Below, piece after piece: positions 1 through 42,525 of a DNA stretch of 64,000 bases. A model generated the notes under the pieces. The model did no database searches and was not told where the DNA came from. It saw nothing but the letters and a program-made list of their open reading frames with translations. A program made the translations under genes and the position numbers. This DNA comes from Parcubacteria group bacterium Gr01-1014_8 (GTDB taxonomy: Bacteria > Patescibacteriota > Minisyncoccia > Phycocordibacterales > UBA2100), in the NCBI GenBank assembly GCA_007376385.1, contig VMGC01000004.1, positions 1-64,000 of the forward strand. Direction: 5' to 3'. Position 1 is the first letter of the stretch; every line of letters starts with the position of its first letter.

Positions 1-312
1 CGCCATGCCCGAGCGGATAGAATTGTCGCCCCGCCACCTGCCCGAATACTTGGAGGGCAGAACACCAAAGAAAAATGTCCTTTCCTTTTTAGAAGAAATC
101 GGTCGCGCGCAAATCCGAAAAGCAAGGAACATTTTTCTTTGGTGTCCGCCGAGTCCGCGAGGCGGTGGCGGGGCGTCATCATTCGTGGGGGTTCTCCGCA
201 AAATGGGTTCTAACTTTTTTAAACAAACACCACAAAATTTGATTTGACCATTCGCGCGCTCGAGGCGGGTGATCTGTTTACTCTTTTTTACAGAACGTTG
301 TAAACTTGGCAT

Positions 313-1134
313 ATGTCAGATAGTTTAAAGCCATCACGCAGAGACGTACTTCGATTAGGGGGTGCTGCAGCAGGCGCGGCCGCACTCGGGATTCGTCTCG
401 AAAATGTTTTAGCGCAAGAAAGCGTAAAACCTGAGTTTGAAAAAAGATTGCTCGAAAGGTTGCCGAAGGCAGTTGCCCAAATTGACGCTTCGTATGCTGC
501 AGTCGCAAAATCGGGCAGTAGGGATGCTTTGACTGCGGGTATTTCAAATAGTGAACAAGATCGACTCGAAAAACTTATTATTCCTGACGATGAAAAATTC
601 GCCTACGAAAGACCATTGCCGCACGGATATGGTGGAGATGGGCGACTTCCAGTAGGTGGTAGAAAGTCATTTGAAGATAGGTCTAGGGCACTCCTTTCAT
701 ACTTGAGCACTACGGAGCGTGATGCGTCAACCTCAGACATTCAGCATGATTTGGTAGTCAAATTGCGAGAAAAAGTTGTGGAAATCGTATCAAAACAAAA
801 AGAGAATCAAACTACCGGCTGGGGTATTTATTTGGATTACAAAAAATCTGTAGAGAAATACTTTCAAGATAGAAATGGAGAAGTTTCCTTGCGTGCAGCT
901 CGTGCATTTCAAGACAGGGTTAGTGGAGCGGGGGAAACAGTGAAGCCCTCGTCTCAAGTTGCCGTTCAAGCATCATTCGAACAGGTGAGCGCAAACGCTA
1001 TAAGACTCGCAAAACACAATGATACTGTGGTGAATTGGCTGCCCTCTGCATTTCCTCCGATTGAAGAAGCCATCTTGAAACTGGTCGGTTTCGAAGGAAA
1101 ATACAGAGAAGGTCATTTTTTCAACGTGAGATAG
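313..1134 (+). CDS. secreted hypothetical protein with twin-arginine (Tat) signal peptide
   Basis: N-terminus SRRDVLRLGGAAAGAAAL fits the Tat motif (S/T-RR-x-F/L-L-K) followed by a hydrophobic h-region; no recognizable catalytic motif. Confidence 0.5.
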   Translation: MSDSLKPSRRDVLRLGGAAAGAAALGIRLENVLAQESVKPEFEKRLLERLPKAVAQIDASYAAVAKSGSRDALTAGISNSEQDRLEKLIIPDDEKFAYERPLPHGYGGDGRLPVGGRKSFEDRSRALLSYLSTTERDASTSDIQHDLVVKLREKVVEIVSKQKENQTTGWGIYLDYKKSVEKYFQDRNGEVSLRAARAFQDRVSGAGETVKPSSQVAVQASFEQVSANAIRLAKHNDTVVNWLPSAFPPIEEAILKLVGFEGKYREGHFFNVR

Positions 1135-1279
1135 TTGTTTCGCTCGAGATATAAAAAGTAATTGACTCAGAATACAGAAAATTTTTGTGAAAATAAGTTC
1201 CGAAGCCAAATCCGGCCAAGATAAAGGGTTATGATCACTTATGTTACGATTCAAATATATCTGAAGCTGAAACCCCGAT

Positions 1280-2434
1280 ATGTCTGAAGCGCTAACTACG
1301 GATATCTATAGGCAAAAAGCTACATTGTCTGATGCCGAAGTCGAGCAAATTTCCAGCGCATTGGCAGCAGAAATAGGAATTGAATCAGCCAAAGAAAAAA
1401 TGGCGGCGGCGCGCGATGCAATAGTACTGGTCAAGCGTGCAATTTCAGAGGGAAAAAAGATGAACACGACTGCCTTTGAGACGGCAAGCTTAGAGTCAAT
1501 GCATGAAAGCTGGAAACAGCGGCGAGCCGTAGATAGTACGGCAACCACCGAAGGTATTAAGGAACGCATGGTGTCTCTTAGGGACCTGCCAAAGGACCAA
1601 GAAGACGCATATCTTGCTCGACTAAGGAGTGCGATCAAGCATGTGGAGACACATATTCAGAAAATCCCTTGGCACGGAGATGCATTCAAAAAACCACTGA
1701 ACGAATTTTTAAAGGGATGGGAGGGACGCGAGGGATACCTTGGTGCAATGGTCTGTGGTAGTTATGGCGCCGGTCTGCAGAATAAATTTTCGGATATCGA
1801 TGTGTATGTCATATTGAGCGAGAAAACAGACTGGAAGGAGCGTGGAGACAAAAAGTTCGGTGATTTTCTGGTGGAATATAACGCACACCCCATACCGTAT
1901 ATTCGGGATCTGATCGAGCAGGACAAAAAAGCGGGCAAGCGGCATTGCTGCAGAAAAGTTGCAACAGGACTGATTCTCTCGGATCCGACCGGCCAAATTC
2001 GCGCCCTTCAAGATGACGCTAAAAAGCAGATGCTTGAATCGCTTCCACGGAATTCTGATCCTGAGTGGGTTGAAATGAGTAAATATTACATGTGGGACCA
2101 AATCGACAATCTTCGCGACATGGCGGAAAGACGCGACCCGGGATTTGCGTACGCTTATTTTGCGGGCGTCGTAAATATCGTTGATTACTTCAGCAAGTTT
2201 CTGGGTGCGGAAGTCCCGCGGCCGGTTCGGGCGTATCAATTCTTTTCCAGCGAAGATTTCCGGCGATCGTACAGTATTGATTCGTTTCCAGATCAGCCTT
2301 TTGCGGAGCTTGTGTTGGAATGCATGAAAGGCGCTGAGATTTCCCGAGTAAATACGTTGACCGAATATGTTACGGAGAAGATGGGCGGTCTCAATATCGA
2401 CGGATGGACGCTGCAAACCCCGTTAGCAAAATGA
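1280..2434 (+). CDS. Pol-beta superfamily nucleotidyltransferase (ANT/KNTase-like) with ~140-aa N-terminal extension
   Basis: Minimal NTase motif GSYGAGLQNKFSDIDVYVIL (GS-x9-13-DhDh); the C-terminal helical region resembles the KNTase/ANT C-domain; the N-terminal 140 aa is predicted helical. Confidence 0.6.
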   Translation: MSEALTTDIYRQKATLSDAEVEQISSALAAEIGIESAKEKMAAARDAIVLVKRAISEGKKMNTTAFETASLESMHESWKQRRAVDSTATTEGIKERMVSLRDLPKDQEDAYLARLRSAIKHVETHIQKIPWHGDAFKKPLNEFLKGWEGREGYLGAMVCGSYGAGLQNKFSDIDVYVILSEKTDWKERGDKKFGDFLVEYNAHPIPYIRDLIEQDKKAGKRHCCRKVATGLILSDPTGQIRALQDDAKKQMLESLPRNSDPEWVEMSKYYMWDQIDNLRDMAERRDPGFAYAYFAGVVNIVDYFSKFLGAEVPRPVRAYQFFSSEDFRRSYSIDSFPDQPFAELVLECMKGAEISRVNTLTEYVTEKMGGLNIDGWTLQTPLAK

Positions 2435-2438
2435 ATCG

Positions 2439-3077
2439 CTAGGGAAGGGGAGGCAGCTGATCCTTCCACTTCGCATAAAATTCTTCTTTGGAGATCTTGT
2501 ATACGTACTCATCGTACGCCACTCCATCTACCACGCGGGCTGCATTGTGTTTTTCGATCAGCGTATATCCGACGTGTTCAAGCAGTTTCTGACTCGCGAC
2601 GTTCGGGTCTATGGAATGTCCAAGAACCCAATTAATGCCCAATTTTGAGAACCCATAATGCAGTTGTAGGATCCGAGCTTCGGAGGCGATCCCTTTTTTC
2701 CAATACGCTTTGTCTCCGATAACGGCACCTCCGTTCGCACCGCCAGTCGCAGGGTCTATATCGCGGAAACTTACGACACCGATAAACTTGAATTTATCTC
2801 CGTTTTCTTTGGCGAAAACGCTAAAGACCTTCGCGGTCACGTCGTGTGCAGAACGCTGAAGCCAAGCTTTTTGATGTTCAAGTGTTACTGGCGGGCGCGT
2901 TCGCAAATAGCGGTTAACTTCTGGGTCATTCAAATATGTCACATGCGAAGGAAGGAGGCGTTCTTCCATTTCGCAAAGAGCTGTCCGCTGGCCTTCAGCC
3001 AGGATGTTCAATCCAGAGCGACTTTCAAAAGTGCTTTCCTGCGGCGTATTTTCGGGTTCTGGATTTTCAGCTGACAT
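2439..3077 (-). CDS. GNAT family N-acetyltransferase (RimJ/RimL-like)
   Basis: YLNDPEVNRYL...PVTLEHQKAWL matches the N-terminal signature of the RimL/Acetyltransf_3 class; 212 aa. Confidence 0.6.
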   Translation of the reverse strand: MSAENPEPENTPQESTFESRSGLNILAEGQRTALCEMEERLLPSHVTYLNDPEVNRYLRTRPPVTLEHQKAWLQRSAHDVTAKVFSVFAKENGDKFKFIGVVSFRDIDPATGGANGGAVIGDKAYWKKGIASEARILQLHYGFSKLGINWVLGHSIDPNVASQKLLEHVGYTLIEKHNAARVVDGVAYDEYVYKISKEEFYAKWKDQLPPLP

Positions 3078-3090
3078 ATACTTCGAGAAT

Positions 3091-3312
3091 TTAGGCTAGA
3101 AATTTCGCGATGGGTTTCGACCGGGACGCATCCGCCAGCTCAATTTCGTCGGTTTTGTGCTCTTTGAGAATAAGCCGTGAACATTCCAGAAATGCTGGCT
3201 GTTGATCCAGCGTGAGGAACCAGTGCTTATACGCTTTCCCGAAGTTCGCCTTTCGGTCCACGGATCTATCCAAGTGGCCGCAGGGAGCATGGGAGTGATA
3301 TATGCTGGACAT
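3091..3312 (-). CDS. small hypothetical protein (73 aa)
   Basis: ORF only; contains HSHAPCGH, a possible metal-binding motif; lies between two convergent or divergent genes. Confidence 0.3.
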   Translation of the reverse strand: MSSIYHSHAPCGHLDRSVDRKANFGKAYKHWFLTLDQQPAFLECSRLILKEHKTDEIELADASRSKPIAKFLA

Positions 3313-3489
3313 GACATGATTATACTAAATCAAAGTAGATTTTCTCCTGCATCCCCATGGCGAAGCGATGGTAAATAGCTCAGCCGATTTGCGGATGATA
3401 ATCCCGCAAACGAGTTTTAAGACGTTATAAATTGTGCCCGCACAGAAAGCATGCGATAGTTTTAGTACTTAGGAAAATCATTTTTTCTC

Positions 3490-5049
3490 ATGTCCATCAC
3501 AATTGCTGCATCGTTGTTACAAGCCGCACTCATGTTGCTGACTCTCGTTCAGTCGACGCCTGATCTGCCGCAATCCGCGAGGGATAATGCCATACAAGTT
3601 ACCGAACACGCGATTCGGGAGGCGACCATCGCGCTTACCCGGCTTGGTGCCGCACGGCCAGCCACTGCTGGAGCGGCAACGCTTTCTATAACGAACATGG
3701 CTCTTGCTACACCGCCGGGGATGACCATGACCCTGCAATACAGCAACATGCCGCGGGCAGGAGTCCGCATCATTAATACCGCTGGCGTTGTCGTATGGAC
3801 CCAGGAATTGACCCAGACGGGCGCAGGCACGTTGAATATGCCGCTCCCTATCACGTTGCCGGAGGGGAGCTACACGGCGCAAGCGTTTGGAACAGACAAC
3901 TCTATATACACGACGAGTCAGCCGTATTATTTTGCCGGTAACGTGCCAGCAAGCATAGCGTATAACAATCAATCGCAGTCGTCTGTCGTTGCGGTCTACA
4001 CAAACCTTCCGGCTGGAGTCCACGTCAATCTCCTCTGGAAAAATCCTCAAGGGCAATGGCTCCAAGTAGGAGAGTCCAACATTGCTCCAAACGGAGGCAG
4101 TGGTACGGTCAGCGTGCAAATTACCTTGGTTGACCCTCTTACCGGAAAAGTTCCCCTTGGTTCCTATAAATTTCGAATTCAAAAAACGAGCGACATAACC
4201 TGGTCTCTCGAAAGTGCGCCTTTTGCCTTCATCGGCGGACCGAGGACGGGACTCTGGTGTGATATCACATCGAATAAAGCGAATGTAGTTGCAGGAGAAC
4301 AGTTCATTCTGACATGGACCGGAAGCCAGGAGATCAAGGAACCGGTCATGCATCGGCATATAACCGGAGGCGGCAAGGTACTCGTCTCGCAAAACGGTTC
4401 GATGAGTATGACAGCAGAAAGCGGACCTAAAATAATCTGGTTCACGATTGGTAGTGGCGGACTGACAGGTACGCCCAACGAGATCTGCTCCGTAAAGATG
4501 AATATTGTTTCCTCAACAATGGCTGCTCCGACAGTTTCCATGGAAGCATCTCCTTCAACGCTTGGCGCGGCCCAAACTGCCATGCTGACCTGGAGTTCAA
4601 CCTACGCGAATCGCTGCACTCTTCAATACGATGGTAAAGAAGATATCGTCTCATTGAGCGGCTCAAGGACGGTGACGCCGACACATACAACGGCGTACCG
4701 TTTCGTCTGCACGAATGATCCTGGCTCTGGGAGAGACGGACCTTCTGCAGAAACAACGGCAGTGATAACCATTGCCGCGCCGACGTGTACGCTCACCACA
4801 GACAAAAGTTCGTATAAACTCGGCGAAGCCATCGTGCTTCAGTGGGCAAGCCAAAATGCGACATACGCATCGTTCTGGCAGGACACATCCGGCAGGGATC
4901 ATCTGCTGCTCCCTGGCGACAAATTATCGGCAAGCGGCATGCATACCATCACGGCGAGTGTCCTTGGCAATCCGCCAGTCACTCTCCTTATCTACAATTA
5001 CTTCAACAATAACGCCTGCAGTGTAGTCATCCCGGTCACTCAAAACTAG
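3490..5049 (+). CDS. secreted hypothetical protein (519 aa), beta-rich, Ig-like-repeat appearance
   Basis: N-terminal signal peptide MSITIAASLLQAALMLLTLVQS; Thr/Ser/Gly-rich repeated segments; no catalytic motif recognized. Confidence 0.5.
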   Translation: MSITIAASLLQAALMLLTLVQSTPDLPQSARDNAIQVTEHAIREATIALTRLGAARPATAGAATLSITNMALATPPGMTMTLQYSNMPRAGVRIINTAGVVVWTQELTQTGAGTLNMPLPITLPEGSYTAQAFGTDNSIYTTSQPYYFAGNVPASIAYNNQSQSSVVAVYTNLPAGVHVNLLWKNPQGQWLQVGESNIAPNGGSGTVSVQITLVDPLTGKVPLGSYKFRIQKTSDITWSLESAPFAFIGGPRTGLWCDITSNKANVVAGEQFILTWTGSQEIKEPVMHRHITGGGKVLVSQNGSMSMTAESGPKIIWFTIGSGGLTGTPNEICSVKMNIVSSTMAAPTVSMEASPSTLGAAQTAMLTWSSTYANRCTLQYDGKEDIVSLSGSRTVTPTHTTAYRFVCTNDPGSGRDGPSAETTAVITIAAPTCTLTTDKSSYKLGEAIVLQWASQNATYASFWQDTSGRDHLLLPGDKLSASGMHTITASVLGNPPVTLLIYNYFNNNACSVVIPVTQN

Positions 5050-5210
5050 AGCATGTTTGAAAACCTCCCCCTGCCTGGAAACCGTTCATTTTCTGCTCGA
5101 CATTTCGTCCCGCATTCGCCGTAACCGCTACGCTTCGTGCTCCGCCTCATGTCTCACGACGAAAATGAACGGTTTCGGCTCGGCTACCACGGGTTTTCAA
5201 ACATGCTCTA
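5047..5210. other. long imperfect hairpin (~165 nt) immediately downstream of the 3490..5049 CDS
   Basis: Outer arms tagagcatgtttgaaaac (5047-5064) and gttttcaaacatgctcta (5193-5210) are perfect reverse complements; inner arms ggaaaccgttcattttc (5079-5095) and gaaaatgaacggtttc (5163-5178) also pair. Confidence 0.45.
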
Positions 5211-5333
5211 GCTGCGGCGCGCCGGTCTATTGTGGTATAGTGGTACATTTGACGGTATGCGAAAGATGGCATTCATTTCCGTTGTTATAGGCCTCTCGTT
5301 TGTCGCATCTCCCGCACTGTACTAAAACCGGAT

Positions 5334-5537
5334 ATGCCGAATGATACCGTGCGGCTCGATGCGCTTGAGAAGAAAATCGACGCAATCTATGTGTCCGTCG
5401 AAAAGACGCGCAAATATTTGCTGGTAACCGCAGTTGTAACGCTGGCGCTCATCGTTCTTCCCGCACTCGGTCTTGTATTTGCTATCCCGTCATTTATGTC
5501 TACTTACGGCAGCATGATGGACGAACTTCAGATCTGA
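5334..5537 (+). CDS. small membrane protein (67 aa)
   Basis: Single predicted TM segment LLVTAVVTLALIVLPALGLVFAI; ORF only. Confidence 0.3.
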   Translation: MPNDTVRLDALEKKIDAIYVSVEKTRKYLLVTAVVTLALIVLPALGLVFAIPSFMSTYGSMMDELQI

Positions 5538-5542
5538 ATTGC

Positions 5543-6097
5543 ATGAGTTCTGCCCGCATCGTCCAAAAAGCCGAGGAGTACGCGACAGAAGCGCACGCCG
5601 GGCAATTTCTGAAAAATAAAAGCGCCGAGTCTTTTATCGAACATCCGAGGCGCGTCGTGAAGCTCGTCGAGATATCAGTCGCGACGGACGACGAACTCGC
5701 CGCAGCGTGGCTGCATGACATCGTAGAAGATACGCCGGTAACCCTTGAAGATATTGAAAGAGAATTTGGCGCAGTAATAACCGAGATGGTTGACGGCCTT
5801 ACCGACCCGCCGCATTTTGCGGGCAATCCCAACGACATCCGAAAAAAATGGCAGGCAGAGAGAGTGAAAGATAAGGGCAAGAGCGTAAAGCGCATCAAGG
5901 TCGCGGACCAGACGGTGAATTCCGCTATGATGGGTTTTGACCCCCCAATCGGATGGTCGCCGGAGCACAGGCGCATATACGTCGAAGGAGCGCGCTGGAT
6001 CGCAGAGGAATGCATCGGGGTTAGCGAGTACCTAGACCGCCTCTTCGCCGAAACATACGAAAAGGTCATTAAGGCGATTGAGGCCGACGAAGCCTAG
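5543..6097 (+). CDS. HD-domain protein, small (p)ppGpp hydrolase-like (RelA/SpoT N-terminal HD fold)
   Basis: EAHAGQ...IEHPRRV...AAWLHDIVEDT...IEREFGAVITEMVDGLTD reproduces the conserved HD_4 / SpoT hydrolase motif order (H...HD...D). Confidence 0.65.
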   Translation: MSSARIVQKAEEYATEAHAGQFLKNKSAESFIEHPRRVVKLVEISVATDDELAAAWLHDIVEDTPVTLEDIEREFGAVITEMVDGLTDPPHFAGNPNDIRKKWQAERVKDKGKSVKRIKVADQTVNSAMMGFDPPIGWSPEHRRIYVEGARWIAEECIGVSEYLDRLFAETYEKVIKAIEADEA

Positions 6098-6112
6098 TGC
6101 TATCCTTCGTAC

Positions 6113-6790
6113 ATGAACTTCGGAAAACCGCTCGATGTACGTCCGTCGCAAGACAACGCGCGGCCGTCCGTCGATGTAGATGGGATTAAATTTTTCAATC
6201 AAAAACAAGGCACCGTATCAGCGGAAGAGGCGAGTGCCATTCAAATAACGCCGGCGGCATTGCAGGCAAGCGCTCGGCTTTTCCGCAATCTCACACCGGA
6301 TACCAAGGTGCAAACGTTCAATGGCAGGCTGACAGACCCCCTCAAGGTGTTCGAGTTTGCAAAAAAGAAAATTCAAACTCTGATTGACAGCGGCAAAGAC
6401 GTTCCGTGGCTCGCTGTCGGACATGCGGGCGACGCTGTTGCGATGATACCCATGGTTGCATTTCCCGGCGACAAGCGAGCATTGGGCATAGAACATGAGA
6501 AATTGGGAACCTCGCGCATCGTAGAGATAACGGATGACAACAGAGAATTTCTTGCGGAAGAAGACACGGATAGCGGCAGGCCAAATGCATTCAAGGCGCT
6601 GGTCATGAAAATGGAGCCTCCGCAAACGGACCAGTTTGTAGCGATCCTAAGAAAGCGCGGAGGGGTCATTGAGCTCGCGCAAGTATTTTCTGGCATGCTG
6701 ACGCCGCCTATCCCAAATGCTACGCACGCCCCCGAAGTCTTCCGGTCCTACGCAGCTTGGTGGGAAAAACATGCTGTAGTGACCCAGTAA
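6113..6790 (+). CDS. hypothetical protein (225 aa)
   Basis: ORF with no recognized motif; sits in-line between the HD protein and the SemiSWEET gene. Confidence 0.4.
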   Translation: MNFGKPLDVRPSQDNARPSVDVDGIKFFNQKQGTVSAEEASAIQITPAALQASARLFRNLTPDTKVQTFNGRLTDPLKVFEFAKKKIQTLIDSGKDVPWLAVGHAGDAVAMIPMVAFPGDKRALGIEHEKLGTSRIVEITDDNREFLAEEDTDSGRPNAFKALVMKMEPPQTDQFVAILRKRGGVIELAQVFSGMLTPPIPNATHAPEVFRSYAAWWEKHAVVTQ

Positions 6791-6912
6791 TCTGGTACCA
6801 TAGGCATGCAATGCACGGAGGACTCCATCATCTCCACGCGCGTAAGAGGCTCTACAAGCACTTGAGCCCGTATCCGCATCCGACCCGTTGGAAGCGGCTG
6901 TTTGATTACGTA

Positions 6913-7146
6913 ATGTATGGAGTTGCCATTCTGTCTCCAGCTTCTCTCTTACCGCAGCTTCATATGCTGTATACGTTCCAAGATGCCGCAGGCCTCTCGC
7001 TTACGACATGGCTCCTCGGCAATATAATAAATTTGTTGTGGTTGGCGTATGGTTTGATCCATCGCGACATACCTCTCATGGTTTCGGGACTCATCCTTGC
7101 GATCCTCAACATACTAATGGTGTACGGAATAATAGCGTACAGCTAA
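6913..7146 (+). CDS. SemiSWEET / PQ-loop (MtN3-like) small sugar transporter
   Basis: 77 aa with three predicted TM helices and the PQ motif (SLLPQLHMLY) in TM1. The longer ORF 6757..7146 begins inside the previous gene, so the internal Met at 6913 is preferred. Confidence 0.55.
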   Translation: MYGVAILSPASLLPQLHMLYTFQDAAGLSLTTWLLGNIINLLWLAYGLIHRDIPLMVSGLILAILNILMVYGIIAYS

Positions 7147-7341
7147 GTAGTCTTTTAAGGAGTTTTTATTGGCGTGCAATACCCCGTGGAGTCGGTACTC
7201 CGACCCTCGGGGATGCACACCAAACCCGAATGGGCGGTGGCCCATTCCTATTCCAACACAAAATGCAAAAGTACTCTTTTGCGTTTCCGAGCCGAGGAGC
7301 AAACACAGGTTTAATACCTCGGAGCTTGTTCCGAGGAACCT

Positions 7342-9039
7342 TTATTCGGTTGCAGGTGCAGGTACGTTTGCTGGTGGCGGCGGAGAAGGTTCCGGTTCGG
7401 GTGGTGGTTCTACCGGCGTCTCTGGAGGTGGAGGTGGGACGTCTACAGGGGCGGGAGGTTCTGTTGCAGGAGCCGTCTCTGGCGTGACTTCTGGCACATC
7501 AGACGGCACCGGCGCGGATCCGTCATGTGCAGCATCCGATTGATCTGATTCTTCGGGGGAAGTCGAATCCGTCGCAGGATCGCTATCCTCCGCTGGTGCG
7601 TCTGGTTCGACTGTAGCGTCCAGCTCCGTCTGCTCGGACGTGTCGGCAGAATCCTCGTCTTCGGGGAGCGTGGAATCCTCATCTCTCGGTACATCGGCAG
7701 TTTCTTCTGGAGACGAATTTTCGGCTGGCTCTGCTGCACCGTTCTCTTCCGTGGCGGATCCCGACGCAGTCGCGGCAGGCGCTGCAGACGCGCTGCCTCC
7801 GCCACTGTTCGTTGGCGGTGCCGCATCAGTCGTTTCAGTCGTCGTTGCTTGTTCCGCTTCACTCTCCTCATCCGCGGCGCCCAATACTTCTGGCTGCGGC
7901 TCGCCGAAGGCTTCGGCGGAGGCGGCTTCTGGTTCCGGGTCAGGAATGTTGGGTGTGCCTGGCGTCGGTATCGGGTCCACCCACGTGCCTGTTCCATCTG
8001 GAATACGCGCGTACGACTTGTTTGGCGCGATCGCAGTCCCTGGGCAACTGCCCGCCGATGGAGTTGATGTTGCGTTTGTGCTTCCAGGTGTCAACTCATT
8101 CTCGCAAAAGTCACTGGGGTTGTCGTACGTGTGCGAGTCGACGAGGACGTTCGTATCGGTATAGAGAAAGATGCTATCACCGGTGTTATTGAGAACTGGC
8201 TTGTTGAAGTACACCACAAGCCATCCGTGTGCAGGGATGGTTGTCGTCGCGGGCTGTGTGTTTGTTGATCCTATAACTGCCTGCGTATTTCCAGCCCCGC
8301 CACTTTCATCCGCAAGATACCAATCGACAATATCTATAGCAACGTCGCCCTTGTTGTACAGTTCAACCCATTCGCCGTCCGGCATGTTTGAAGCATCATT
8401 TCCGAAGTCATATCCGTTCGCAGTATCGTCCGGATTCGGCAGGAATTCGTTCAGCACAATATCAAAGACGCTCGCGGTTGCTTGATAGGTGATGACAAGA
8501 TGCACGCGCTCTTCGTCTGTGTAGCCGGTGTTCTCTGGCGCTCCTTCATACCATCCGCGGTAAATGAGGTCAGCGTTGCAGATATCGCTGTTCGCGAAGC
8601 CCGTCGTCGTTGCAAGCGTGAGTCCGACGTTCCATACGCCCGTCGTTGTGGTTGGGGTCGTGTTAAGAGCTATGAGCCCTCCGGAATAAACAAATGGGGA
8701 AGTTGTCGCAACGACATTAAGTGCATTGCATAGCGCTGTTACTCCGCCTGTTTGTTCTGCAGTCACTCGATACTTTGTGGTGAAGCTCCCGGCTTCCGGC
8801 GTCATGACAGGAATGATGAGGGGAGTCGTTGTCGCTGTTATCGTTCGCGCGTATGTGTCATCTGCGACAAGAAAATCAAGAAGTCCCGCGCCAAAGAAGT
8901 TTCCGATCGAAATTTCTGTATCTCGCAAATATGAAAGCGTCTGTCCAATACCACCGTATGACATTCCGAAAGAAGATGCAAAGAGCATACATGAAAGCGC
9001 AAGAACTGTTGCCTTATGCGCAAAGGATGGCTTCCACAT
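7342..9039 (-). CDS. secreted lamin-tail-domain (LTD) protein with long acidic Pro/Ser/Thr/Glu-rich C-terminal tail
   Basis: Signal peptide MWKPSFAHKATVLALSCMLFASS at the internal Met (start 9039). LTD signature region DGEWVELYNKGDVAIDIVDWYLAD...GWLVVYF. The last ~200 aa are low-complexity (PEPEP, PPPPPETPVEPPPEPEPSPPPP). Confidence 0.7.
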   Translation of the reverse strand: MWKPSFAHKATVLALSCMLFASSFGMSYGGIGQTLSYLRDTEISIGNFFGAGLLDFLVADDTYARTITATTTPLIIPVMTPEAGSFTTKYRVTAEQTGGVTALCNALNVVATTSPFVYSGGLIALNTTPTTTTGVWNVGLTLATTTGFANSDICNADLIYRGWYEGAPENTGYTDEERVHLVITYQATASVFDIVLNEFLPNPDDTANGYDFGNDASNMPDGEWVELYNKGDVAIDIVDWYLADESGGAGNTQAVIGSTNTQPATTTIPAHGWLVVYFNKPVLNNTGDSIFLYTDTNVLVDSHTYDNPSDFCENELTPGSTNATSTPSAGSCPGTAIAPNKSYARIPDGTGTWVDPIPTPGTPNIPDPEPEAASAEAFGEPQPEVLGAADEESEAEQATTTETTDAAPPTNSGGGSASAAPAATASGSATEENGAAEPAENSSPEETADVPRDEDSTLPEDEDSADTSEQTELDATVEPDAPAEDSDPATDSTSPEESDQSDAAHDGSAPVPSDVPEVTPETAPATEPPAPVDVPPPPPETPVEPPPEPEPSPPPPANVPAPATE

Positions 9040-9155
9040 TTTTACTTTTTGTACCGGTTTGCCGAGAGCAGTAGGAAGCGCCAAGACGTGTCTCGACAAT
9101 GGAAACTTCTCGACGGTGCCGTCTACTGTCGGTATCCGTATATAGGTCATGTCGC

Positions 9156-9722
9156 TCATGGTTGTCGTAGGTCGAGCGTCGGAGTCGAACGGTTTGGCGG
9201 CGTGCCGGGATCCTTTCGTCTGCGAAGTGCAGTGACCTCGCGGCCGATGCGTATCACTTCGTCAACGATAATGATGGCAGCAGGAATTGCTATCATCAGC
9301 GTGAATCCGAGCGGTTTCTTTGCGAAATCAAGCACATATCCCGCATAGGGGATAGAGAACAGAACGCGTCCCTCGACATCCTGCGCAGCAATACGCACGC
9401 CATCCGCTTCCTCGTTCGCGTCGCCTTTGGTTTTATAAAACACTTGACTGCCCTCTGTTTGTATCTCGACAATTCGGTGCGTTGTAGGTATCTGCGCGCC
9501 CGTGCCTTCGCCGAACGTAATAACATCGCCAACGGCGTATGTTGATTGCGGTTTGAGGACGACGACGGAACCGGTCAATATCGCAGGCTCCATCGAACCG
9601 CTTTTAACTATCTTTATCTGCACGTTCCCCGGGATTGGGAGAAGTGATGCAAGGAAAAGGCCAGCAACCCCCAAGAGAAGGAGGACGAATACTGCATAGA
9701 AAAGTTTGCTAACGATCGTCAT
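9156..9722 (-). CDS. sipW: signal peptidase I, archaeal/eukaryal type (S26B, SipW-like)
   Basis: N-terminal TM anchor then SGSMEP catalytic-Ser box and GDVITF; 188 aa; SipW architecture. Directly downstream of four SipW-cognate-signal proteins. Confidence 0.75.
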   Translation of the reverse strand: MTIVSKLFYAVFVLLLLGVAGLFLASLLPIPGNVQIKIVKSGSMEPAILTGSVVVLKPQSTYAVGDVITFGEGTGAQIPTTHRIVEIQTEGSQVFYKTKGDANEEADGVRIAAQDVEGRVLFSIPYAGYVLDFAKKPLGFTLMIAIPAAIIIVDEVIRIGREVTALRRRKDPGTPPNRSTPTLDLRQP

Positions 9723-10836: not shown

Positions 10837-12057
10837 TTAATCTTGGATGCCGTCACCAACCTCGTTGTTCAGAATGTTGCAGGTGAGATTGTCGCTCGGG
10901 TTCAAGGTGAATGGGGATGACGTACCGACGTTGACGCTGTTCGTGCAAGCGCCGCTGAATGTCACGGTGAAAGTCTTTCCGCCGACATTACCTGTTACCT
11001 GCTCATACGCGGTATACGAACCGCTCGGCAGGCCTGGCACCGGCACTTCGTCGGTCACTACCTGGTCGCCACCCGGGCCGACTATGTGCAGCGTGAAGTC
11101 GGCAACTTCGATACCTACTGTTGAAACGAGGAGTGCCTTGTTGACGGTAAGAGTACCGGTTGTCACCTCCGGTGGATTGCAGAGGAAGCCTTCATTGTGT
11201 CGCGCTTGTTCTGCTCTGAATGCAAGCGTGAGTTCAGCCATGTCAGTTTGCGTCTCGTTGCCAAGCGCGGTTCCGTCACAAAGTACGCTGTTAGGTCGTA
11301 CTTGCGGGCCTGTATCAGCGTCATCAGGCAAGCCAGGGGTCGTCAAGGTTCCAAAGCACCACGCTTTCGCGATATAGACGGTCTCATTTGCGGGAAGCGG
11401 CGAGTCTCCTCCCCACGCGTTTCCATTTGAGTCGGCAAGGGTGATGGAGAAGGCGCCGGTCGTCGTAGCAAGGTCAGTGAGTGTCTTTACGCCTCCCGAG
11501 AGGCCTTGTTCGCCAGTTTCGTACACGTTGTCACCGTCGTCAGCCCACCAGAAGAATTGGAGTGCATCTGCAAGCTCACCGTCCCACGCATCAAGCGGGT
11601 TTTCCTGCGCATCCACCTGGCCTTCAGGCTCAGTGGTCGAGACATCGTCATCCGATGTAAGCGTCAAGTCCATACATGCCCACGCATCGTTCTGAACGTG
11701 AATAGAGATGGTGTCCTCGCCCTCATCATCCGGCTTCAAGTCAGTGAAGTTGAAAAAGAGAAGACCGTCGTCGAGGTCCGAAAGAGGGAAGCTCGTGTCG
11801 CACGGCGAGCCTGGGAGTGGGAACGGAAACTGCCCCTGCCAATAGAATCCCGGCGTCGTCGTCGCTTGCTCGCCAAGGAATGTGCAGCGATTCCCATTGT
11901 AATAACTGTCATTATCAATCTTCAAATCAATCGCTCCCGCAGCAAACGTGTTGCCAGTGGACGTCTCTGTGTCGGAAAAGAACGCGCCGGTCATTCCCGC
12001 TCCTATCGCAGCCGCCGCTCCCGCGACAACGATGAGCCCAAATATGATTCGTGGCAT
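10837..12057 (-). CDS. TasA/camelysin-like SipW-dependent secreted protein, paralog 3 (406 aa)
   Basis: N-terminus MPRIIFGLIVVAGAAAAIGAGMTGAFFSDTETSTGNTFAAGAIDLKID matches the SipW-cognate class signal region (AFFSDTETSxGN). Conserved C-terminal CDGTALGNETQTD...FRAEQARHN...FLC. Confidence 0.7.
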   Translation of the reverse strand: MPRIIFGLIVVAGAAAAIGAGMTGAFFSDTETSTGNTFAAGAIDLKIDNDSYYNGNRCTFLGEQATTTPGFYWQGQFPFPLPGSPCDTSFPLSDLDDGLLFFNFTDLKPDDEGEDTISIHVQNDAWACMDLTLTSDDDVSTTEPEGQVDAQENPLDAWDGELADALQFFWWADDGDNVYETGEQGLSGGVKTLTDLATTTGAFSITLADSNGNAWGGDSPLPANETVYIAKAWCFGTLTTPGLPDDADTGPQVRPNSVLCDGTALGNETQTDMAELTLAFRAEQARHNEGFLCNPPEVTTGTLTVNKALLVSTVGIEVADFTLHIVGPGGDQVVTDEVPVPGLPSGSYTAYEQVTGNVGGKTFTVTFSGACTNSVNVGTSSPFTLNPSDNLTCNILNNEVGDGIQD

Positions 12058-12220
12058 ATTGTTTATTAATTAATCGCCAGTTTCCCACTGGTTAATAATG
12101 TTGCTAATAACGTAAAGAACTTTGCTGTGCCGTGCCCCGTGAGATGGCTTCGCCTATCTCATGGGGTTTCCCGTACAGCCTCCCGAGCACGACTTTCATG
12201 CTCGGAGTGGCTAGAAAGGA

Positions 12221-13513
12221 CTAAGTTGGATCTGGCGGCGGCGCATCTCCCGGATCGCACAGAAAATTCGGATTATGCCGCACTTGTTCCGCGCGGAACA
12301 CGATGTCGGCGGTCAACGAATCCGTCTGCGCTTCGTTACCCATCGTGCTGCCATCGCACGTGATAACGCCCGTCAGACCGTCAACAATTTGCACTCCTGC
12401 GCACCACGCAGAGCCGATGTACTCTGTCGTACTCGCAACGAGTGCGCCATTTCCTGTCGTAGAGTCGTGAAGCGGGAGCGTAATGCCGTTCCCGAAGAGT
12501 CCTGATGAGAGAGACGTCTCCGTCGGCGGTTCATACACGCCGTCTCCATCGTCATTCCACAGGAAGAGATTGAGATAGTTGCCAAGCTCTCCGAGCGGGC
12601 TGTTGTTCAAATCCACGAGACTCGCGGCGTTGCATTCCGCGTCCGGTACGAGCGCGTCTGATTCCGGTTCGGTGCAGGTGTTGTCGTCGTTCTCCACATT
12701 CGTGATGTCCATGCACGCCCAGCCGTCGTTGGTGCCGACATGCAAACTGAATACATCGCGCCCGTCGTCGCCCGGCTTTACGTCGGTGAAATTCCAGAAC
12801 GGCTCGCCCGTGAGATCAATGGGGTCAACAAAGATTCCATCGCCATCAACGACGAGTTTGAAGAGAAGCCCCGCGGGATTAAACGTTGGGTCGCCTCCGC
12901 CTCCACCAGGGTTCGTTACAACTGCGGTAAGTGTATTTGGGCCCTGCACGAAATCCGCCGCTGGTACGACGTACACGTCTTCTGCAGCAGAGGTGAAATT
13001 ACTTGCCGCAAATTCGCTACCGATCGCATTGCCGTTCAGAGAAACAGAATAGAAGTTATCCGCGGCAATGTAGAGCGTCGCGCCGACGATCGGCCCATTC
13101 ACGTTGAACGTCCGAGTGAACGTATTTGTCTGCGTAACGCTCGCGTCCGATGGGCCATCAGCAGCCCAGATCCAGAACGAGCCATCGTTCGCGCCATCAT
13201 TTGGTGGTCCCGCAACATGCCCGCCATCCAAATCCGCAGTCCACGACGGATGAATGAACGTAACCGCAACGGCATTTCCCGCGCCGTCGTCTCCTGTGAA
13301 TGTCGTTAGTGTGTCGCTCACGATGGTAAAGTCCTCGCCGTTTGGTTCGCCGTTGTACGTTGAAAGGGAATGGTCGATCTTGAGGTCAATCGAGCCGGCG
13401 GTGAAGATATTTCCCGCCGAAGTTTCGGTGTCAGAAAAGAAAGCACCCGTTGCTCCCGCTACTGCTCCGCCGATGAAGATGATCATACCGAGTCCCAGTA
13501 ATATTCGTCGCAT
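12221..13513 (-). CDS. TasA/camelysin-like SipW-dependent secreted protein, paralog 2 (430 aa)
   Basis: MRRILLGLGMIIFIGGAVAGATGAFFSDTETSAGNIFTAGSIDLKID; C-terminal CDGSTMGNEAQTD...FRAEQVRHN...FLC. Confidence 0.7.
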   Translation of the reverse strand: MRRILLGLGMIIFIGGAVAGATGAFFSDTETSAGNIFTAGSIDLKIDHSLSTYNGEPNGEDFTIVSDTLTTFTGDDGAGNAVAVTFIHPSWTADLDGGHVAGPPNDGANDGSFWIWAADGPSDASVTQTNTFTRTFNVNGPIVGATLYIAADNFYSVSLNGNAIGSEFAASNFTSAAEDVYVVPAADFVQGPNTLTAVVTNPGGGGGDPTFNPAGLLFKLVVDGDGIFVDPIDLTGEPFWNFTDVKPGDDGRDVFSLHVGTNDGWACMDITNVENDDNTCTEPESDALVPDAECNAASLVDLNNSPLGELGNYLNLFLWNDDGDGVYEPPTETSLSSGLFGNGITLPLHDSTTGNGALVASTTEYIGSAWCAGVQIVDGLTGVITCDGSTMGNEAQTDSLTADIVFRAEQVRHNPNFLCDPGDAPPPDPT

Positions 13514-13696
13514 AGTATCTATGCGCCGGTTTCCCTATATTAGTTAGCTGTTCTAAAAACGTTGCTGTTCACTGAACAGCCCCTCCAGTCGCAGGTTCGC
13601 CAAGGCGACTCCTTGAGATCCCCAAGGTGTCGCCTTGTGCATCGGCGAGCTGCGGCTGGATTCGGCTATCCACGAACCATCTAATTTCGTAGAGAA

Positions 13697-14596
13697 CTAG
13701 GAAGCTGGTACAGGTGTTACCCAAGATGGAACGTAGTCTGTCTCACACTGGAAGTCAGCGTTATTTCGAGATTGCTCCGCATAGAACTCGAGATCGCCAA
13801 TGACTCTGTCAGTTTGAGCTGCGTTATCAACTCCTGTTCCGTCGCAGTTCCAACCGGTTCCGAGGGTAGTCGGATTACCCGTGTTGACGCCATCTTGGAC
13901 GAGGGCATCGGGCGTCATTGCACCGAAGCACCAAGCCTTACCGATGTAGTTCGTTGATCCGCCAGGAACCCCGGCGCTACCGAAGGGACCTCCGGAAGCG
14001 TCAGAAAGAGCGATTTGACCTTGTGAGTCCAATCCGCTGATTGGACCGCTCAAAAAGACGGTTTCTGGTGATCCGCCTGTGCCTGCGACTGGCTCGAAGA
14101 CGTTGTCTCCGTCGTCCACCCAGAACGCGAAGTTGACTTGCTCGTCCAACTCACCGAGACCTGGACCCGGCTCTGCACAATTTGCGTCATCATCACCTTC
14201 CGGTTCCGTACAGGTATTATCTTCGTCTGTTGTTACTTGCGCCGCTGCGCACAGCCAAGCGTTGTTGCTACCGACGTGAATGGAGATTGTGTCCTCACCA
14301 AGGTCTCCCGGTTTCAGATCAATGAAATCGAAGAACTTCTCAATAGTTAGGTCAGTTAAATCCCACGAGGTGGCAGCCCACGCGACCATATTGTCGGGGC
14401 CTGATCCTTGTGTAGAAGTAGCGGTGATGTAGCTGTCATTATCGATCTGTAAATCAATATCTCCCGCCGCAAACGTGTTGCCAGTAGATGTTTCTGTGTC
14501 GTTGAAAAAAGCGCCCGTGGCTCCCGCCGCGACCGCCCCCACAAACACGATCATCCCCAAACTTATGAGAATTCTTTGTACTGATAGTAATTGCAT
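13697..14596 (-). CDS. TasA/camelysin-like SipW-dependent secreted protein, paralog 1 (299 aa; first gene of the cluster)
   Basis: MQLLSVQRILISLGMIVFVGAVAAGATGAFFNDTETSTGNTFAAGDIDLQID; C-terminal CDGTGVDNAAQTD...FYAEQSRNN...FQC. Confidence 0.7.
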   Translation of the reverse strand: MQLLSVQRILISLGMIVFVGAVAAGATGAFFNDTETSTGNTFAAGDIDLQIDNDSYITATSTQGSGPDNMVAWAATSWDLTDLTIEKFFDFIDLKPGDLGEDTISIHVGSNNAWLCAAAQVTTDEDNTCTEPEGDDDANCAEPGPGLGELDEQVNFAFWVDDGDNVFEPVAGTGGSPETVFLSGPISGLDSQGQIALSDASGGPFGSAGVPGGSTNYIGKAWCFGAMTPDALVQDGVNTGNPTTLGTGWNCDGTGVDNAAQTDRVIGDLEFYAEQSRNNADFQCETDYVPSWVTPVPAS

Positions 14597-14624
14597 ATTA
14601 TTTTTTTATTATTGATTTTTTATA

Positions 14625-14680
14625 TTTGGAGTTACGAACTCCAAACGTGCCAGATATTTGGACTTACGAACTCCAAACGT
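14625..14680. promoter_or_regulatory. two tandem palindromic boxes (24 nt each, 32-nt period) upstream of the TasA-like cluster
   Basis: tttggaGttacgaactccaaacgt (14625-14648) and tttggaCttacgaactccaaacgt (14657-14680); each has tttggag/ctccaaa inverted arms. They lie 30-85 nt upstream of the minus-strand start at 14596, beside an AT-rich stretch. Confidence 0.45.
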
Positions 14681-14825
14681 CTGTTTGGTAATTTCTTGCG
14701 TCGTTCGGAAGATCGACCACTCCGATCTCGCGATTGTTTGTACTGCTTCCTTCAGTCCACAAGCACCATGTTACCCAAGGACCTTCTCGTTTCCCGAAAG
14801 AAGAACGAAGCAGTAATTTGAATCG

Positions 14826-14945
14826 CGAGGACCTATCTGCGTGTTACCGCACAGGCAGACGCCTTTTTAACGGGGGTTACCCGGCTGGCTCCTCGGCTCG
14901 GAAATGAAAATGAATACACTTTCATTTCGCTCGCTCTATGTCGCC
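14826..14945 (+). repeat. copy A of a ~120-nt repeated structured element (candidate ncRNA)
   Basis: Shares tctgcgtg..cgcacaggcagac, a ttttaa box, gctcggaaatga.aa and tttcatttcgctcgct with copy B at 40611-40735. Contains hairpin gaaatgaaa/tttcatttc. Confidence 0.45.
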
Positions 14946-15243
14946 AGACAAGCGCAACGCGCTGGGCGAGTTAGGTCCGATGCGACAAGCGCATCAGACC
15001 TGCACGACCAACAGACAAACTGTAACGCCTTCATGATGTGGGTCTCATGAAGAAAAAATGGGTTTTCCGTGGATAACTCTTGTATAAGTGTGTGAATTGG
15101 CTCTGTATAACGATAGGGAAATCGTGTGGACAAACCTGTGGATTTATTTTCCATTGCAAACAATGCGCAGGGCGCTACGCGCCCTCTGCCCCTGTCAAGT
15201 CTTTTCTCTTTTCAGTATACCGTGGCACATCTGTCAACCGCCG

Positions 15244-15279
15244 ATACCATAATGGTGCCGACCGGCACCATTATGGTAT
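15244..15279. promoter_or_regulatory. perfect 17+2+17 bp palindrome
   Basis: ataccataatggtgccg-ac-cggcaccattatggtat. Its core tggtgccgaccggcac recurs at 15981-15996 on the other side of the PaaX-like gene. Confidence 0.45.
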
Positions 15280-15377
15280 GTTGCATATTTCACAAAAATA
15301 ACAAAAAAAGATGAAACAAGAAGAAAAAAAGAGGAGCAAGAAAGAAGCAGAGGGGATGGCAACCGAGATGACAACGA

Positions 15378-15959
15378 TTACGAGAGAGGCAATTTGAAAT
15401 GCACGCGGAATTTTCTGTCGTTCTCAATACTTTGAGCGATAAGATACACTACGCTTGGACCCAGCTTCAGCTCCGTGCGAATAAAGGATATGAATTCTTC
15501 GCATGGGTGGGGGAATATCCATACGCTTTCCTGCAATTTCACAAAACCGATTTTCTGCAGCATTTTTCGCAGTTGTACCCTTTGGCGGCGTCTCTTTTCC
15601 CAAATATCGAATATGACCACGCGCCACAAACCATCCCATTTTCGCGGGATTTGAGGTTGGATCGCTTCGGCCTGCTGGAGGCGTCCCATCTCTCGTTTTC
15701 CGCGCTCGGTAAGGGCGAATTTCCCATCGACTTTCCGCACAAAACCCTTGTCTTCTAGGCGCCCTAAGGCCTGTCGCATCCTGTGAGAAGCATTGCGCCG
15801 TCGGTTAAAATCAGGGTCGATGTGCTTCAACAATCTGGCTGCATTCGGTGCCATCAGGACGAACGTGAGTGCTGCCGCCCCAAATAGGGTCATCAGCATT
15901 GCATCCTGTATCTTTAGGCGCCTGTTATGTGCTTTCGCTTTTATTTCATGCTGTCCCAT
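15378..15959 (-). CDS. PaaX-like winged-helix transcriptional regulator
   Basis: N-terminal wHTH-like region plus a C-terminal WDGLWRVVIFDIWEKRRRQRVQLRKMLQKIGFVKLQESVWIFP segment resembling the PaaX C-terminal domain (W-G-W...R..LR..L...GF..L...VW..P). Confidence 0.5.
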   Translation of the reverse strand: MGQHEIKAKAHNRRLKIQDAMLMTLFGAAALTFVLMAPNAARLLKHIDPDFNRRRNASHRMRQALGRLEDKGFVRKVDGKFALTERGKREMGRLQQAEAIQPQIPRKWDGLWRVVIFDIWEKRRRQRVQLRKMLQKIGFVKLQESVWIFPHPCEEFISFIRTELKLGPSVVYLIAQSIENDRKFRVHFKLPLS

Positions 15960-15973: not shown

Positions 15974-16007
15974 TACCTTAGTGGTGCCGACCGGCACACG
16001 TAAGGTA
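15974..16007. promoter_or_regulatory. imperfect palindrome related to the 15244-15279 palindrome, in the divergent promoter region
   Basis: tacctta-gtggtgccgaccggcacacg-taaggta has outer 7-bp perfect arms and the shared core ggtgccgaccggcac. It lies between the PaaX-like start (15959) and the 16108 gene. Confidence 0.4.
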
Positions 16008-16107
16008 TGAGGAATATAGGATACTTACTATATGTATTGAGTGAAAAAACAAAGACACGCAATAAACAATAAACGCTGCCACGCTCAGGCTTCTTGGCGG
16101 ATAGTTC

Positions 16108-28528: not shown

Positions 28529-29221
28529 ATGGAATATCTCGCAGTCACAGTGCTCATAGGATCCATTTGGTCACTTTTATACTATGCGAGGCCGGACCTT
28601 AGAAAAATGCAGCTCTGGAGCAGCTGGTATTTCACGACTGTTATGACCATCGGTTTCGTGGCGTTAAAAGTAACGCTCGACCTTCCAGTAGAACAATCGA
28701 TAAACCCAGGATATTGGCATCCCAATACGCTCTTTAATTTGAATGCCCTGACAGGCGGTTACGCCATCGAAGATGCGTTCTTTATATTTTTTATGGGCGG
28801 GGTAGGTGCAGTAGTATACGAAGAGTTGTTTAGAAAACATGTTGCCCGCATACATGCGAAGCATAGACCGCATTTTGCAGTGAAAATAGGTGTTGCTGCC
28901 GCAGCATTAGTTGCCCTGTTACACGTTAATCTTATCTACGCGTTGATAGCGTTCGGGTTTGCGGGCGCATTCGTCATCTGGTGGCAAAGACATGACCTTA
29001 TCCGCCATTCGCTCGTAGGAGGCGCAGCTTTTTTAAGTATCTATGCGGTCTCATATTGGCTGGTTCTTTTCATGTTTCCGGAATTCGTGGCGCATCACTA
29101 TAATTTTTCTAACGTGTCTGGTTTGACCTTTGTGCAGTTGCCCATTGAAGAGTATCTGTTTGCGTTCAGTTTCGGACTCATGTGGTCGCCCTTATACGAA
29201 TATATGAGGGATGTGAGATGA
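28529..29221 (+). CDS. polytopic membrane protein, lycopene-cyclase-domain-like
   Basis: Six or more TM helices; the IEDAFFIFFMGGVGAVVYEE motif resembles the conserved PxEE/acidic box of CrtYcd-type lycopene cyclase domains. Low confidence. Confidence 0.4.
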   Translation: MEYLAVTVLIGSIWSLLYYARPDLRKMQLWSSWYFTTVMTIGFVALKVTLDLPVEQSINPGYWHPNTLFNLNALTGGYAIEDAFFIFFMGGVGAVVYEELFRKHVARIHAKHRPHFAVKIGVAAAALVALLHVNLIYALIAFGFAGAFVIWWQRHDLIRHSLVGGAAFLSIYAVSYWLVLFMFPEFVAHHYNFSNVSGLTFVQLPIEEYLFAFSFGLMWSPLYEYMRDVR

Positions 29222-29240
29222 TATTATTTGGAGAACGCAT

Positions 29241-40544: not shown

Positions 40545-40610
40545 GTCTCTACAAGGCATGAAAGGTTTCAAACCCCTGGGCTAGCCCAGGACCCTCGCGA
40601 AAGAGCAGCG

Positions 40611-40735: not shown

Positions 40736-40774
40736 ATCCTCGACAGATAAATATGTGCTAGAATCGCGTTTAAT

Positions 40775-41602: not shown

Positions 41603-41608
41603 GCCGAG

Positions 41609-42282: not shown

Positions 42283-42525
<243 letters not shown>

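Follow-up and report, generated by a model that had tools for sequence, protein, structure and literature searches.

The window analyzed here, a 64-kb stretch of one Parcubacteria contig, derives from a relative of Kaiserbacteria, and its ATP synthase genes share 72 to 74% DNA identity with those of two loci fetched for comparison (L020 and L021; L numbers denote such loci below). Between atpB and atpE, a PNPOx-like gene of opposite orientation splits the ATP synthase cluster. Elsewhere the window carries three tandem paralogous genes which share a 107-nt repeat near their 5' ends, two having Peptidase_M73 (camelysin) signatures below the Pfam gathering score and the third having no Pfam hit. 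Just upstream of the last camelysin-like gene are two tandem 27-nt palindromes (ATATTTGGAGTTACGAACTCCAAACGT), found only at this site in the window, which share an ATAT-stem-TACGA-stem design with a REP at L119. A 44-nt palindrome-containing repeat (TACCATAATGGTGCCGACCGGCACCATTATGGTA...) flanks a PaaX/Cas2-like domain gene and may constitute an operator pair. A gene for a large serine recombinase (Resolvase, Recombinase and Zn_ribbon domains) extends into the 3' side of an opposite-strand tRNA-Glu(CTC) gene, and this overlap may mark the edge of an integrated element. Genes for an AcrB-type RND pump with an HlyD-type adaptor, and lycopene-cyclase-domain and FAD-monooxygenase genes, seemed unusual for a reduced Parcubacteria genome.

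The subject of this study is a structured repeat of about 120 nt which the first-pass annotation had described as present in two copies, A and B. Both were found where they had been placed, but a repeat scan showed that the window carries four copies, A and B on the (+) strand and C and D on the (-) strand. An HMM built from the four recovered all of them with E values of 1e-23 to 1e-31 (nhmmer values for A and B, 1e-31 and 8e-31) and produced no further match in the window, and an unfiltered covariance model scan returned the same four (Table 1). Alignment of A and B confirmed long identical blocks in the order originally noted. Within the window, TCTGCGTGNNNNCGCACAGGCAGAC and the 16-mer TTTCATTTCGCTCGCT were confined to these two copies, as was the pattern of their first hairpin, for which the expected number of chance matches was zero. 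The window contig could be extended by only 4.5 kb, which contained no additional copies.

Table 1. Coordinates of the repeat copies, their parts and other features (window positions unless a locus is named)
Feature	Position	Strand	Remarks
Copy A	14813-14947	+	135 nt; best preserved copy in the window; ends set by comparison with full-length copies
Copy A, ends			5' GTAATTTG... to ...GTCGCCAG; ACAA in place of the usual flanking TAA
Copy A, core	14878-14955	+	Covariance model R1, 82 bits, E = 6e-21
Copy A, variable GC-rich hairpin module (tctgcgtg-ttac-cgcacaggcaga)	14836-14859	+	Predicted hairpin
Copy A, P1 5' strand (CTGGC)	14885-14889	+	Pairs with GCCAG at 14943-14947; covariation in the family
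Copy A, stem-loop P2 (GAAATGAAAATG-aata-CACTTTCATTTC)	14901-14928	+	
Copy A, invariant loop blocks around P2	TCGGCTCG, 14893-14900; gCTCGCtCTAtGTC, 14929-14942	+	
Copy B	about 40558-40750	+	Between a 171-aa ORF and the atpB -10-like box
Copy B, core	40677-40746	+	Followed by ATAA at 40747-40750; covariance model, 51 bits, E = 4e-12
-10-like box (TGCTAGAAT)	40756-40764		10 nt before the atpB ATG at 40775; identified by eye
Copy C	7345-7249	-	Between convergent genes; covariance model, 41 bits
Copy D	42272-42161	-	ATAAAGG to GCCAATAA; stem P2 decayed; covariance model, 63 bits
Lamin-tail-domain gene	7342-9159		605 aa; TAA stop at 7344-7342
ATP synthase cluster, interrupted	40775-42525		PNPOx-like gene at about 41609-42079; copy D beside it
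Three tandem paralogous genes	10837-14596		107-nt repeat at 11903, 13362 and 14430; last gene 13697-14596
Tandem 27-nt palindromes	14622-14680		
44-nt repeat pair	15245-15288; 15974-16017		PaaX/Cas2-like domain gene at 15378-15959
Serine recombinase gene and tRNA-Glu(CTC)	33187-34774		tRNA at 34702-34774
RND pump and adaptor genes; lycopene-cyclase-domain and FAD-monooxygenase genes	52162-56921; 28529-30374		
RAYT-like Y1 genes with palindromes	L119 8840-9690; L008 7030-7890; L062 3510-4480; L166 4480-5235		e.g., ATATCGACCTACGAGGTCGATAT in L119
Fibrobacter related core (TCGGCTCGGAAATGAAAATGAGC..GCTCATTTTCGCTTCGCTCGCC)	L006 5572-5650; L019 98-179; L029 2882-2963; L047 7095-7175		38-53 bits with model R1

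In what follows, the strand reading TTAC/TGGCGAC... (the slash marks the boundary) is called the top strand, and copy A is (+) on its complement. On the complementary strand the element has a 78-nt core, ttTCTGGCTCC-TCGGCTCG-(GAAATGMAAAWG-agta-CWTTTKCATTTC)-nCTCGCnCTAyGTC-GCCAG-TAA, which is an interrupted hairpin whose two stems, P1 and the 12-bp P2, are separated by a large invariant internal loop. Read along the top strand, a flanking TTAC or TTAT precedes the left end, which consists of P1, 18 invariant nt including CGAC-GTAG, P2, the invariant CGAGCCGA and the strand that closes P1. Next there may be a branched hairpin domain, and the right end is a short hairpin, AAACCGG-n4-CCGGTTT, closing with TTTAC or TTTAT. 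The element thus bounded, TTAC/TGGCGAC... to ...CCGGTTTAC, is composite and gene-less and measures about 77 to 190 nt, with a minimal unit of 77 to 83 nt.

The region upstream of the core on the complementary strand is modular. Its short form is GTAAACCGG-n4-CCGGTTT, and its long form is a branched two-hairpin domain closed by TTGGC...GCCAA, in which subfamilies differ by compensatory changes. A second type, to which copies C and D belong, is made up of ATAAAGG, a GC hairpin whose loop is CAAG, and GGTATTNAACC. The conserved blocks can also be separated by additional hairpins, as in L014, L017 and L020. The four blocks originally recognized in A and B correspond to a variable hairpin, the short hairpin, the loop with the 5' arm of P2, and the 3' arm of P2 with the loop. 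The resemblance of the two copies as a conserved folded repeat was not due to chance. The first hairpin is a variable module common to A and B only; no exact match to it (tctgcgtg..cgcacaggcaga) was found in the 175 fetched loci, and L017 has a related hairpin at a different place inside the element.

The four window copies are old and partly decayed. The 5' limit of copy B is uncertain (ATGAAAGG at 40558) and its conserved loop blocks are degenerate, and copy C has a deletion of about 9 nt in the 3' conserved loop. A public ENA contig (k139_15789) matches window positions 30 to 7263 at 100% identity and then diverges inside copy C (7263 corresponds to L174 position 11746), and a second public contig begins near window position 7083; the repeat breaks short-read metagenome assemblies.

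A search for more copies, as the first-pass annotation had proposed, revealed at least about 170 beyond the window in genomes and metagenomes. An exact-pattern scan (TCGGCTCGGAAAYGMAAANGA) of one genome per species matched 52 loci, about 42 of them in Patescibacteria MAGs, mainly of Kaiser-, Yonath-, Lloyd- and Buchananbacteria and Paceibacteria, all of the Parcubacteria group, with up to 11 hits per genome. The same type of scan matched at least 120 loci in groundwater metagenomes, and nhmmer recognized 174 full cores among the genome and metagenome matches listed. No match was obtained in viral contigs by pattern scan or in plasmid and phage records by BLAST. Near-identical copies occurred at unrelated loci inside single genomes, and the core, unpaired bases included, was very strongly conserved between distant Parcubacteria lineages. 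Eight MAGs labeled Gammaproteobacteria or Saccharibacteria (L022, L010, L018, L027, L042, L045, L050 and L051) had typical Kaiserbacteria-type copies in Kaiserbacteria-like flanks, and these labels are probably binning or naming errors. Six hits outside Patescibacteria (L004, L011, L030, L043, L049 and L053) lacked the P2 partner arm and were discarded as chance matches. The hits in four Fibrobacter species shared the hairpin partner and lay at one syntenic locus (Table 1), within a hairpin-rich noncoding region of about 750 nt. Either an old copy became fixed there or this related core is a functional RNA in its own right.

The element is absent from Rfam 15 and from the literature searched by full text. 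At gathering score, the only Rfam match in the window was a tRNA, and in the window plus 18 loci the matches were tRNA, tmRNA and FMN riboswitch, all of them outside the element. With permissive settings, the region around copy A (window 14700-15100) yielded nothing beyond noise. Several other identities were considered and rejected. A sigma-54 promoter was dismissed by eye, the GG/GC spacing being wrong and copy B having no GG; hammerhead and other small ribozymes and group II intron ends were dismissed because their core motifs were absent and no Rfam match was obtained; and an integron attC site was dismissed for lack of RYYYAAC/GTTRRRY ends. A short coding exon ending in TAA was also rejected; although one frame has no stop across the core, variants in P2 are nonsynonymous and stem compensatory.

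The second hairpin had been reported to covary between copies A and B. The change between these two copies is one-sided, either a G.T pair or a 1-nt insertion (GAAATGAgAAA), and hence not compensatory; real covariation appeared only across the wider family. RNAalifold predicted P2 only, and the outer stem P1 was added, after which both stems were tested. In an alignment of 42 sequences, 84% of the cells were paired, compared with 42 to 49% when the partners were slid, nine pairs were changed on both sides, and the covariation score was reached by none of 500 shuffles. In 110 model-aligned copies (82 distinct), an alignment which leans towards the structure because it was fitted to the model, 86% of the cells were paired (43 to 57% when slid), 15 of 20 pairs were changed on both sides, and the covariation score was 0.208 against 0.077 for shuffles. 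Within P1, one pair alternates between CG and UA and another between GC and AU, and the right-end domain shows a compensatory exchange of ATTCCGAC/GTCGGAAT for ATTGCGAG/CTCGCAAT. The family fold is kept by compensatory changes. As DNA, a young full copy gave a folding z score of -10.5; the decayed copy A gave -2.2 as top-strand DNA and -1.3 as complementary-strand RNA. Single substitutions in P2, read on the complementary strand, left A.C mismatches in 20 cases and G.U in 5, and therefore produce wobble pairs on the top strand. P1 was mixed in this respect. The P2 data suggest that the top strand is the one that folds.

A double-stranded site for a host factor, as the annotation had allowed, would neither show compensatory stem changes nor tolerate hairpins inserted between conserved blocks. 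We also considered whether the element is first of all a functional RNA module (a multicopy small RNA or 3'-UTR element serving as stabilizer, terminator substitute or processing signal, or a guide-RNA scaffold) whose spread is secondary. The compensatory changes, the conservation of unpaired core bases over distant Parcubacteria lineages and the retention of a related core at one syntenic locus in four Fibrobacter species all speak for this reading. However, the P2 substitutions favor folding of the top strand, whereas it is the complementary strand that is co-directional with upstream genes; no Rfam family matches; and copies decay freely, examples being B, C and D of the window and L169, which has lost 70 nt. 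Comparison of L169 with L085, L071 and L102 showed that this loss is a deletion of half of the core and 22 nt of flank and not a precise excision.

Evidence of movement came from syntenic sites. L045 and L034 are syntenic with about 88% identity. The L045 site is filled, reading ...GAGGTGTTTAC, then 177 nt (TGGCGAC...CACCGGTTTAC), then GCGCGAC..., and the empty site ...GAGGTGTTTACGCGCGAC... was present in the syntenic L034, L171, L081, L167 and L061, with about 90 nt of identical flank on each side; the empty state was thus also found in four metagenome contigs beyond L034. Aligned at the junction, the empty L034 reads ...GCCGAGGTGTTTAC/GCGCGACGG... and the filled L045 reads ...GCCGAGGTGTTTAC(TGGCGACATAGGGCGAG...CACCGGTTTAC)GCGCGACGG.... 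A second filled/empty site was located 2.8 kb from the L045 insertion. Presence and absence at a syntenic site with exact boundaries identify the element as mobile DNA. A comparison of the window with L021 at the end of atpC was also attempted for the boundaries, and the sequences were too diverged.

The 177-nt copy lies directly 3' of TTAC and itself ends in TTTAC on the top strand. Across the family, the corresponding RTAA flank on the complementary strand was present in about 90% of the 82 distinct copies, with conservation ending there, and the 5' boundary was sharp at GTAAAYYGG. In tandem arrangements, N units have N+1 TTACs; L079 carries two 83-nt units head to tail with three TTACs, and L026 is similar. 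The top strand was on the locally G-rich strand at 53 versus 33 of 86 sites with nonzero skew (P = 0.04), a preference which lost significance at |skew| of at least 0.03 (37 versus 25, P = 0.16).

Because the end motif of the element equals its target motif, the same tetranucleotide stands on both sides of an insertion, which is formally compatible with a 4-bp target duplication. The element could accordingly be a classical MITE, a deletion derivative of an insertion sequence with a DDE transposase, whose double-stranded TTAC/GTAA target was duplicated. We regard this as very unlikely. Comparison of the first 35 nt of a full copy with the reverse complement of its last 35 nt revealed no terminal inverted repeats (local score, 7; shuffle mean, 5.8; 24% of shuffles scoring at least 7), and the two ends are structurally unlike. 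In L015 and L021 the motifs at the two ends differ, a 5' ATAAA being combined with a 3' GTAG or GTAT, and no DDE transposase recurred near the copies.

All copies are intergenic, and their orientation is independent of the neighboring genes. Among 56 copies, 27 had a co-directional and 24 a convergent gene downstream; on the upstream side, 34 had a co-directional and 18 a divergent gene. In the window, copy A is antisense to both neighbors, and copy D lies inside the ATP synthase cluster with the PNPOx-like gene (-) on one side and atpE (+) on the other. Clustering of neighboring ORFs revealed no recurrent gene family near the copies, and the largest cluster of recurrent neighbor proteins proved to be an artifact, its members being spurious ORFs that span the element. 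The elements themselves contain neither a consensus promoter nor a consensus terminator. For the functional RNA module, the mild excess downstream of co-directional genes is a favorable sign, but roughly every second copy either faces a convergent gene or has both neighbors in antisense, and the elements supply no consensus signal to start or end a transcript. Taking these points together with those above, we consider that reading improbable.

With copy B ending 24 nt upstream of the atpB ATG and copy D inside the atp cluster, the element could be read as a cis-regulatory leader of the ATP synthase operon or as an operator there for a host factor, in line with the leader or host-factor site of the first-pass annotation. 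A TGnTAGAAT-like box is indeed present by eye just downstream of copy B, but the consensus promoter scan did not call it, and as a -10 element it would leave copy B outside the atpB transcript. In Kaiserbacteria relatives a copy follows atpC, where the window has none, and the loci examined lacked a conserved sense copy upstream of atpB. A leader or riboswitch would occupy a constant sense position before one class of gene, and the copies, which stand in either orientation between genes, do not. The other copies, at least about 170, lie by unrelated genes in both orientations. The proposal of a leader or processing motif tied to particular genes therefore did not hold, and neither a small noncoding RNA nor an operator serving the ATP synthase operon was supported; we find a leader or operator of that operon scarcely credible. 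The window copies are probably passengers without a dedicated role in ATP synthase expression.

The mild co-directional bias towards upstream genes has a simpler source, because the complement of TTAY, RTAA, holds the stop codon TAA, which is recreated by the element end RTAAA. The mimicry of the target by the element end (TTTAY, i.e., RTAAA) would explain both the recreation of stops and the head-to-tail tandems. Of 38 distinct copies, 10 had an ORF of at least 60 codons that stopped at the terminal TAA, compared with 3 and 2 in the other frames, and the stop-closing copies include the polymorphic L045 insertion. In the window, the 5' ATAAAGG of copy C provides the TAA stop of the Lamin-tail-domain gene. 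Insertion at the R-TAA stop of a gene would recreate that stop, and gene ends would then be neutral landing sites.

The features of the element were compared with those of known small repeats. PATEs are gene-less derivatives of IS200/IS605 with transposon-adjacent (TAM) and transposon-encoded (TEM) motifs (PMC10055086). The present element resembles them in being short, gene-less and without terminal inverted repeats, in its folded nonidentical ends, in inserting directly 3' of a 4- to 5-nt motif with a related motif at the other end (PMC10055086), and in its many copies per genome, for which mobilization would be in trans. It differs in that no TnpA or TnpB with its ends was found in the flanks searched, its TAM and TEM are the same motif, its left end takes the form of a long hairpin broken by a large invariant internal loop, its right-end hairpin nearly reaches the tip, and it is conserved over many Parcubacteria lineages rather than within one species. 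As in IS200/IS605 elements generally, terminal inverted repeats are lacking and subterminal imperfect hairpins are present at both ends (P1/P2 and AAACCGG..CCGGTTT) and backed by covariation; the strand preference is suggestive only. TTAC is also the target of IS608, and the spacing of 18 nt between TTAC and the foot of P2 is similar to that at the left end of IS608, while the right-end hairpin, within 2 nt of the end, is unlike that of IS608.

With REPs and REPINs the element shares its nature as an intergenic folded repeat, often just downstream of genes, an unpaired GTAG (in CGAC-GTAG) 5' of a palindrome on the top strand, and the occurrence of distant RAYT-like Y1 genes in some host genomes. 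REPs, however, are simple 20- to 40-bp palindromes with the tag at one palindrome end (PMC3733652), whereas this element is composite, and its tag, which is ATAG in 12 of 82 copies, lies 7 nt from P2 within the internal loop. The annotation had named a match to a REP/BIME-type repeat as grounds for abandoning its RNA reading; the present result comes near to such a match, the element being of that kind although not a catalogued family. Structured MITEs such as Correia/NEMIS, BOX, RUP and ERIC are likewise small, multicopy, intergenic and folding, and able to supply or alter gene ends. They have terminal inverted repeats and target duplications; in the present element the former were not found and the end motifs can be unequal. 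Omega RNAs and HEARO have in common with it a conserved multistem fold encoded at a transposon end, but neither these nor other Rfam RNAs matched it, and no TnpB or IscB gene was seen nearby. We conclude that the element is a new family in the class of small structured nonautonomous mobile repeats, closest to PATEs and REPs.

The lack of inverted repeats, the unlike folded ends, the tetranucleotide target mirrored at the other end, the tandems and the unpaired CGAC-GTAG by a palindrome are all features of peel-and-paste elements (PMC10055086; PMC3733652). The P2 substitution pattern and the position of the top strand on the locally G-rich strand agree with this to a modest degree, the active strand of IS200/IS605 elements being biased towards the lagging-strand template. 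On balance we favor the view that this is a nonautonomous transposon which moves as a single strand, akin to IS200/IS605 PATEs or REPs, and depends on a Y1 (HUH) transposase acting in trans. Like those elements, it would travel as single-stranded DNA by peel-and-paste, a mode which we infer from the features just listed. The tyrosine transposase would recognize the folded ends and cut after the TTAY motifs, and the invariant unpaired bases would form the recognition surface for the protein.

To find the enzyme, about 1.35 Mb of flanking sequence was searched. No transposase gene bounded by the ends of the element was found there, nor was a Y1 transposase detected by a regular-expression screen or by phmmer with TnpA of IS608 and IS200, queries which were confirmed as valid Y1_Tnp members. 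No cargo was seen in about 174 copies among the matches listed. Clustering of all ORFs combined with a Pfam scan revealed a divergent Y1 family at five distinct places (PF01797, 24.1 bits versus a gathering score of 23). These proteins carry NH(Y/F)HLL and YIHLNP motifs, and their best NCBIfam match is the REP-associated tyrosine transposase (E values of 2e-8 to 2e-13, not reaching the equivalog cut-off). No gene of this family is present in the window. The RAYT-like genes are flanked, and in frame interrupted, by short palindromes specific to each genome, and in L119, L008, L062 and L166 these palindromes differ from the present element, so that a cognate repeat relationship with it was not found; the loci have the appearance of REP-RAYT systems belonging to the candidate phyla radiation. 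In L119 the element is no more than a neighbor of the REP cluster next to the RAYT-like gene, at a distance of 18 nt. The likelier substrates of these proteins are their own flanking palindromes. An enzyme of the right class thus exists in the clade and may be a candidate for this element. In L062, about nine tandem copies of a 13-nt unit (TCACATCAAGGAC; 3577-3732), which derives from one arm of the local palindrome, abut, and by about 35 nt overlap, the 3' end of the open frame that contains the RAYT-like gene.

Transcription of REPs and PATEs is common, and many PATEs encode omega RNAs (PMC3733652; PMC10055086), a circumstance that favors some RNA-level function here as well. The element might be more than a passenger, namely, a transcribed folded RNA with its own job, mobilized by an enzyme outside those recognized so far; we give this a slim chance. 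Such an RNA could be a trans guide-RNA scaffold for a transposon nuclease, as proposed for PATEs, or a mobile 3'-end module that docks at stop codons and gives structure to transcript ends in genomes poor in regulatory DNA, and the conservation of the core well beyond the level of host genes and over many Parcubacteria lineages, together with the fixed Fibrobacter relative, could be read in this way. Within the single-strand transposon that we favor, an added RNA-level role may accompany mobility.

To our knowledge, the small genomes of the candidate phyla radiation are usually thought to hold little repetitive or mobile DNA. Here, one structured element occurs about once per 16 kb in the window and is common to many Parcubacteria lineages. 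It can pass for a regulatory RNA, as it did in the first-pass annotation. Its landing on and recreation of TAA stops offers a clear example of self-neutralizing insertion, and the element gives a defined DNA substrate with which to seek the transposase or a partner nuclease in unculturable hosts.
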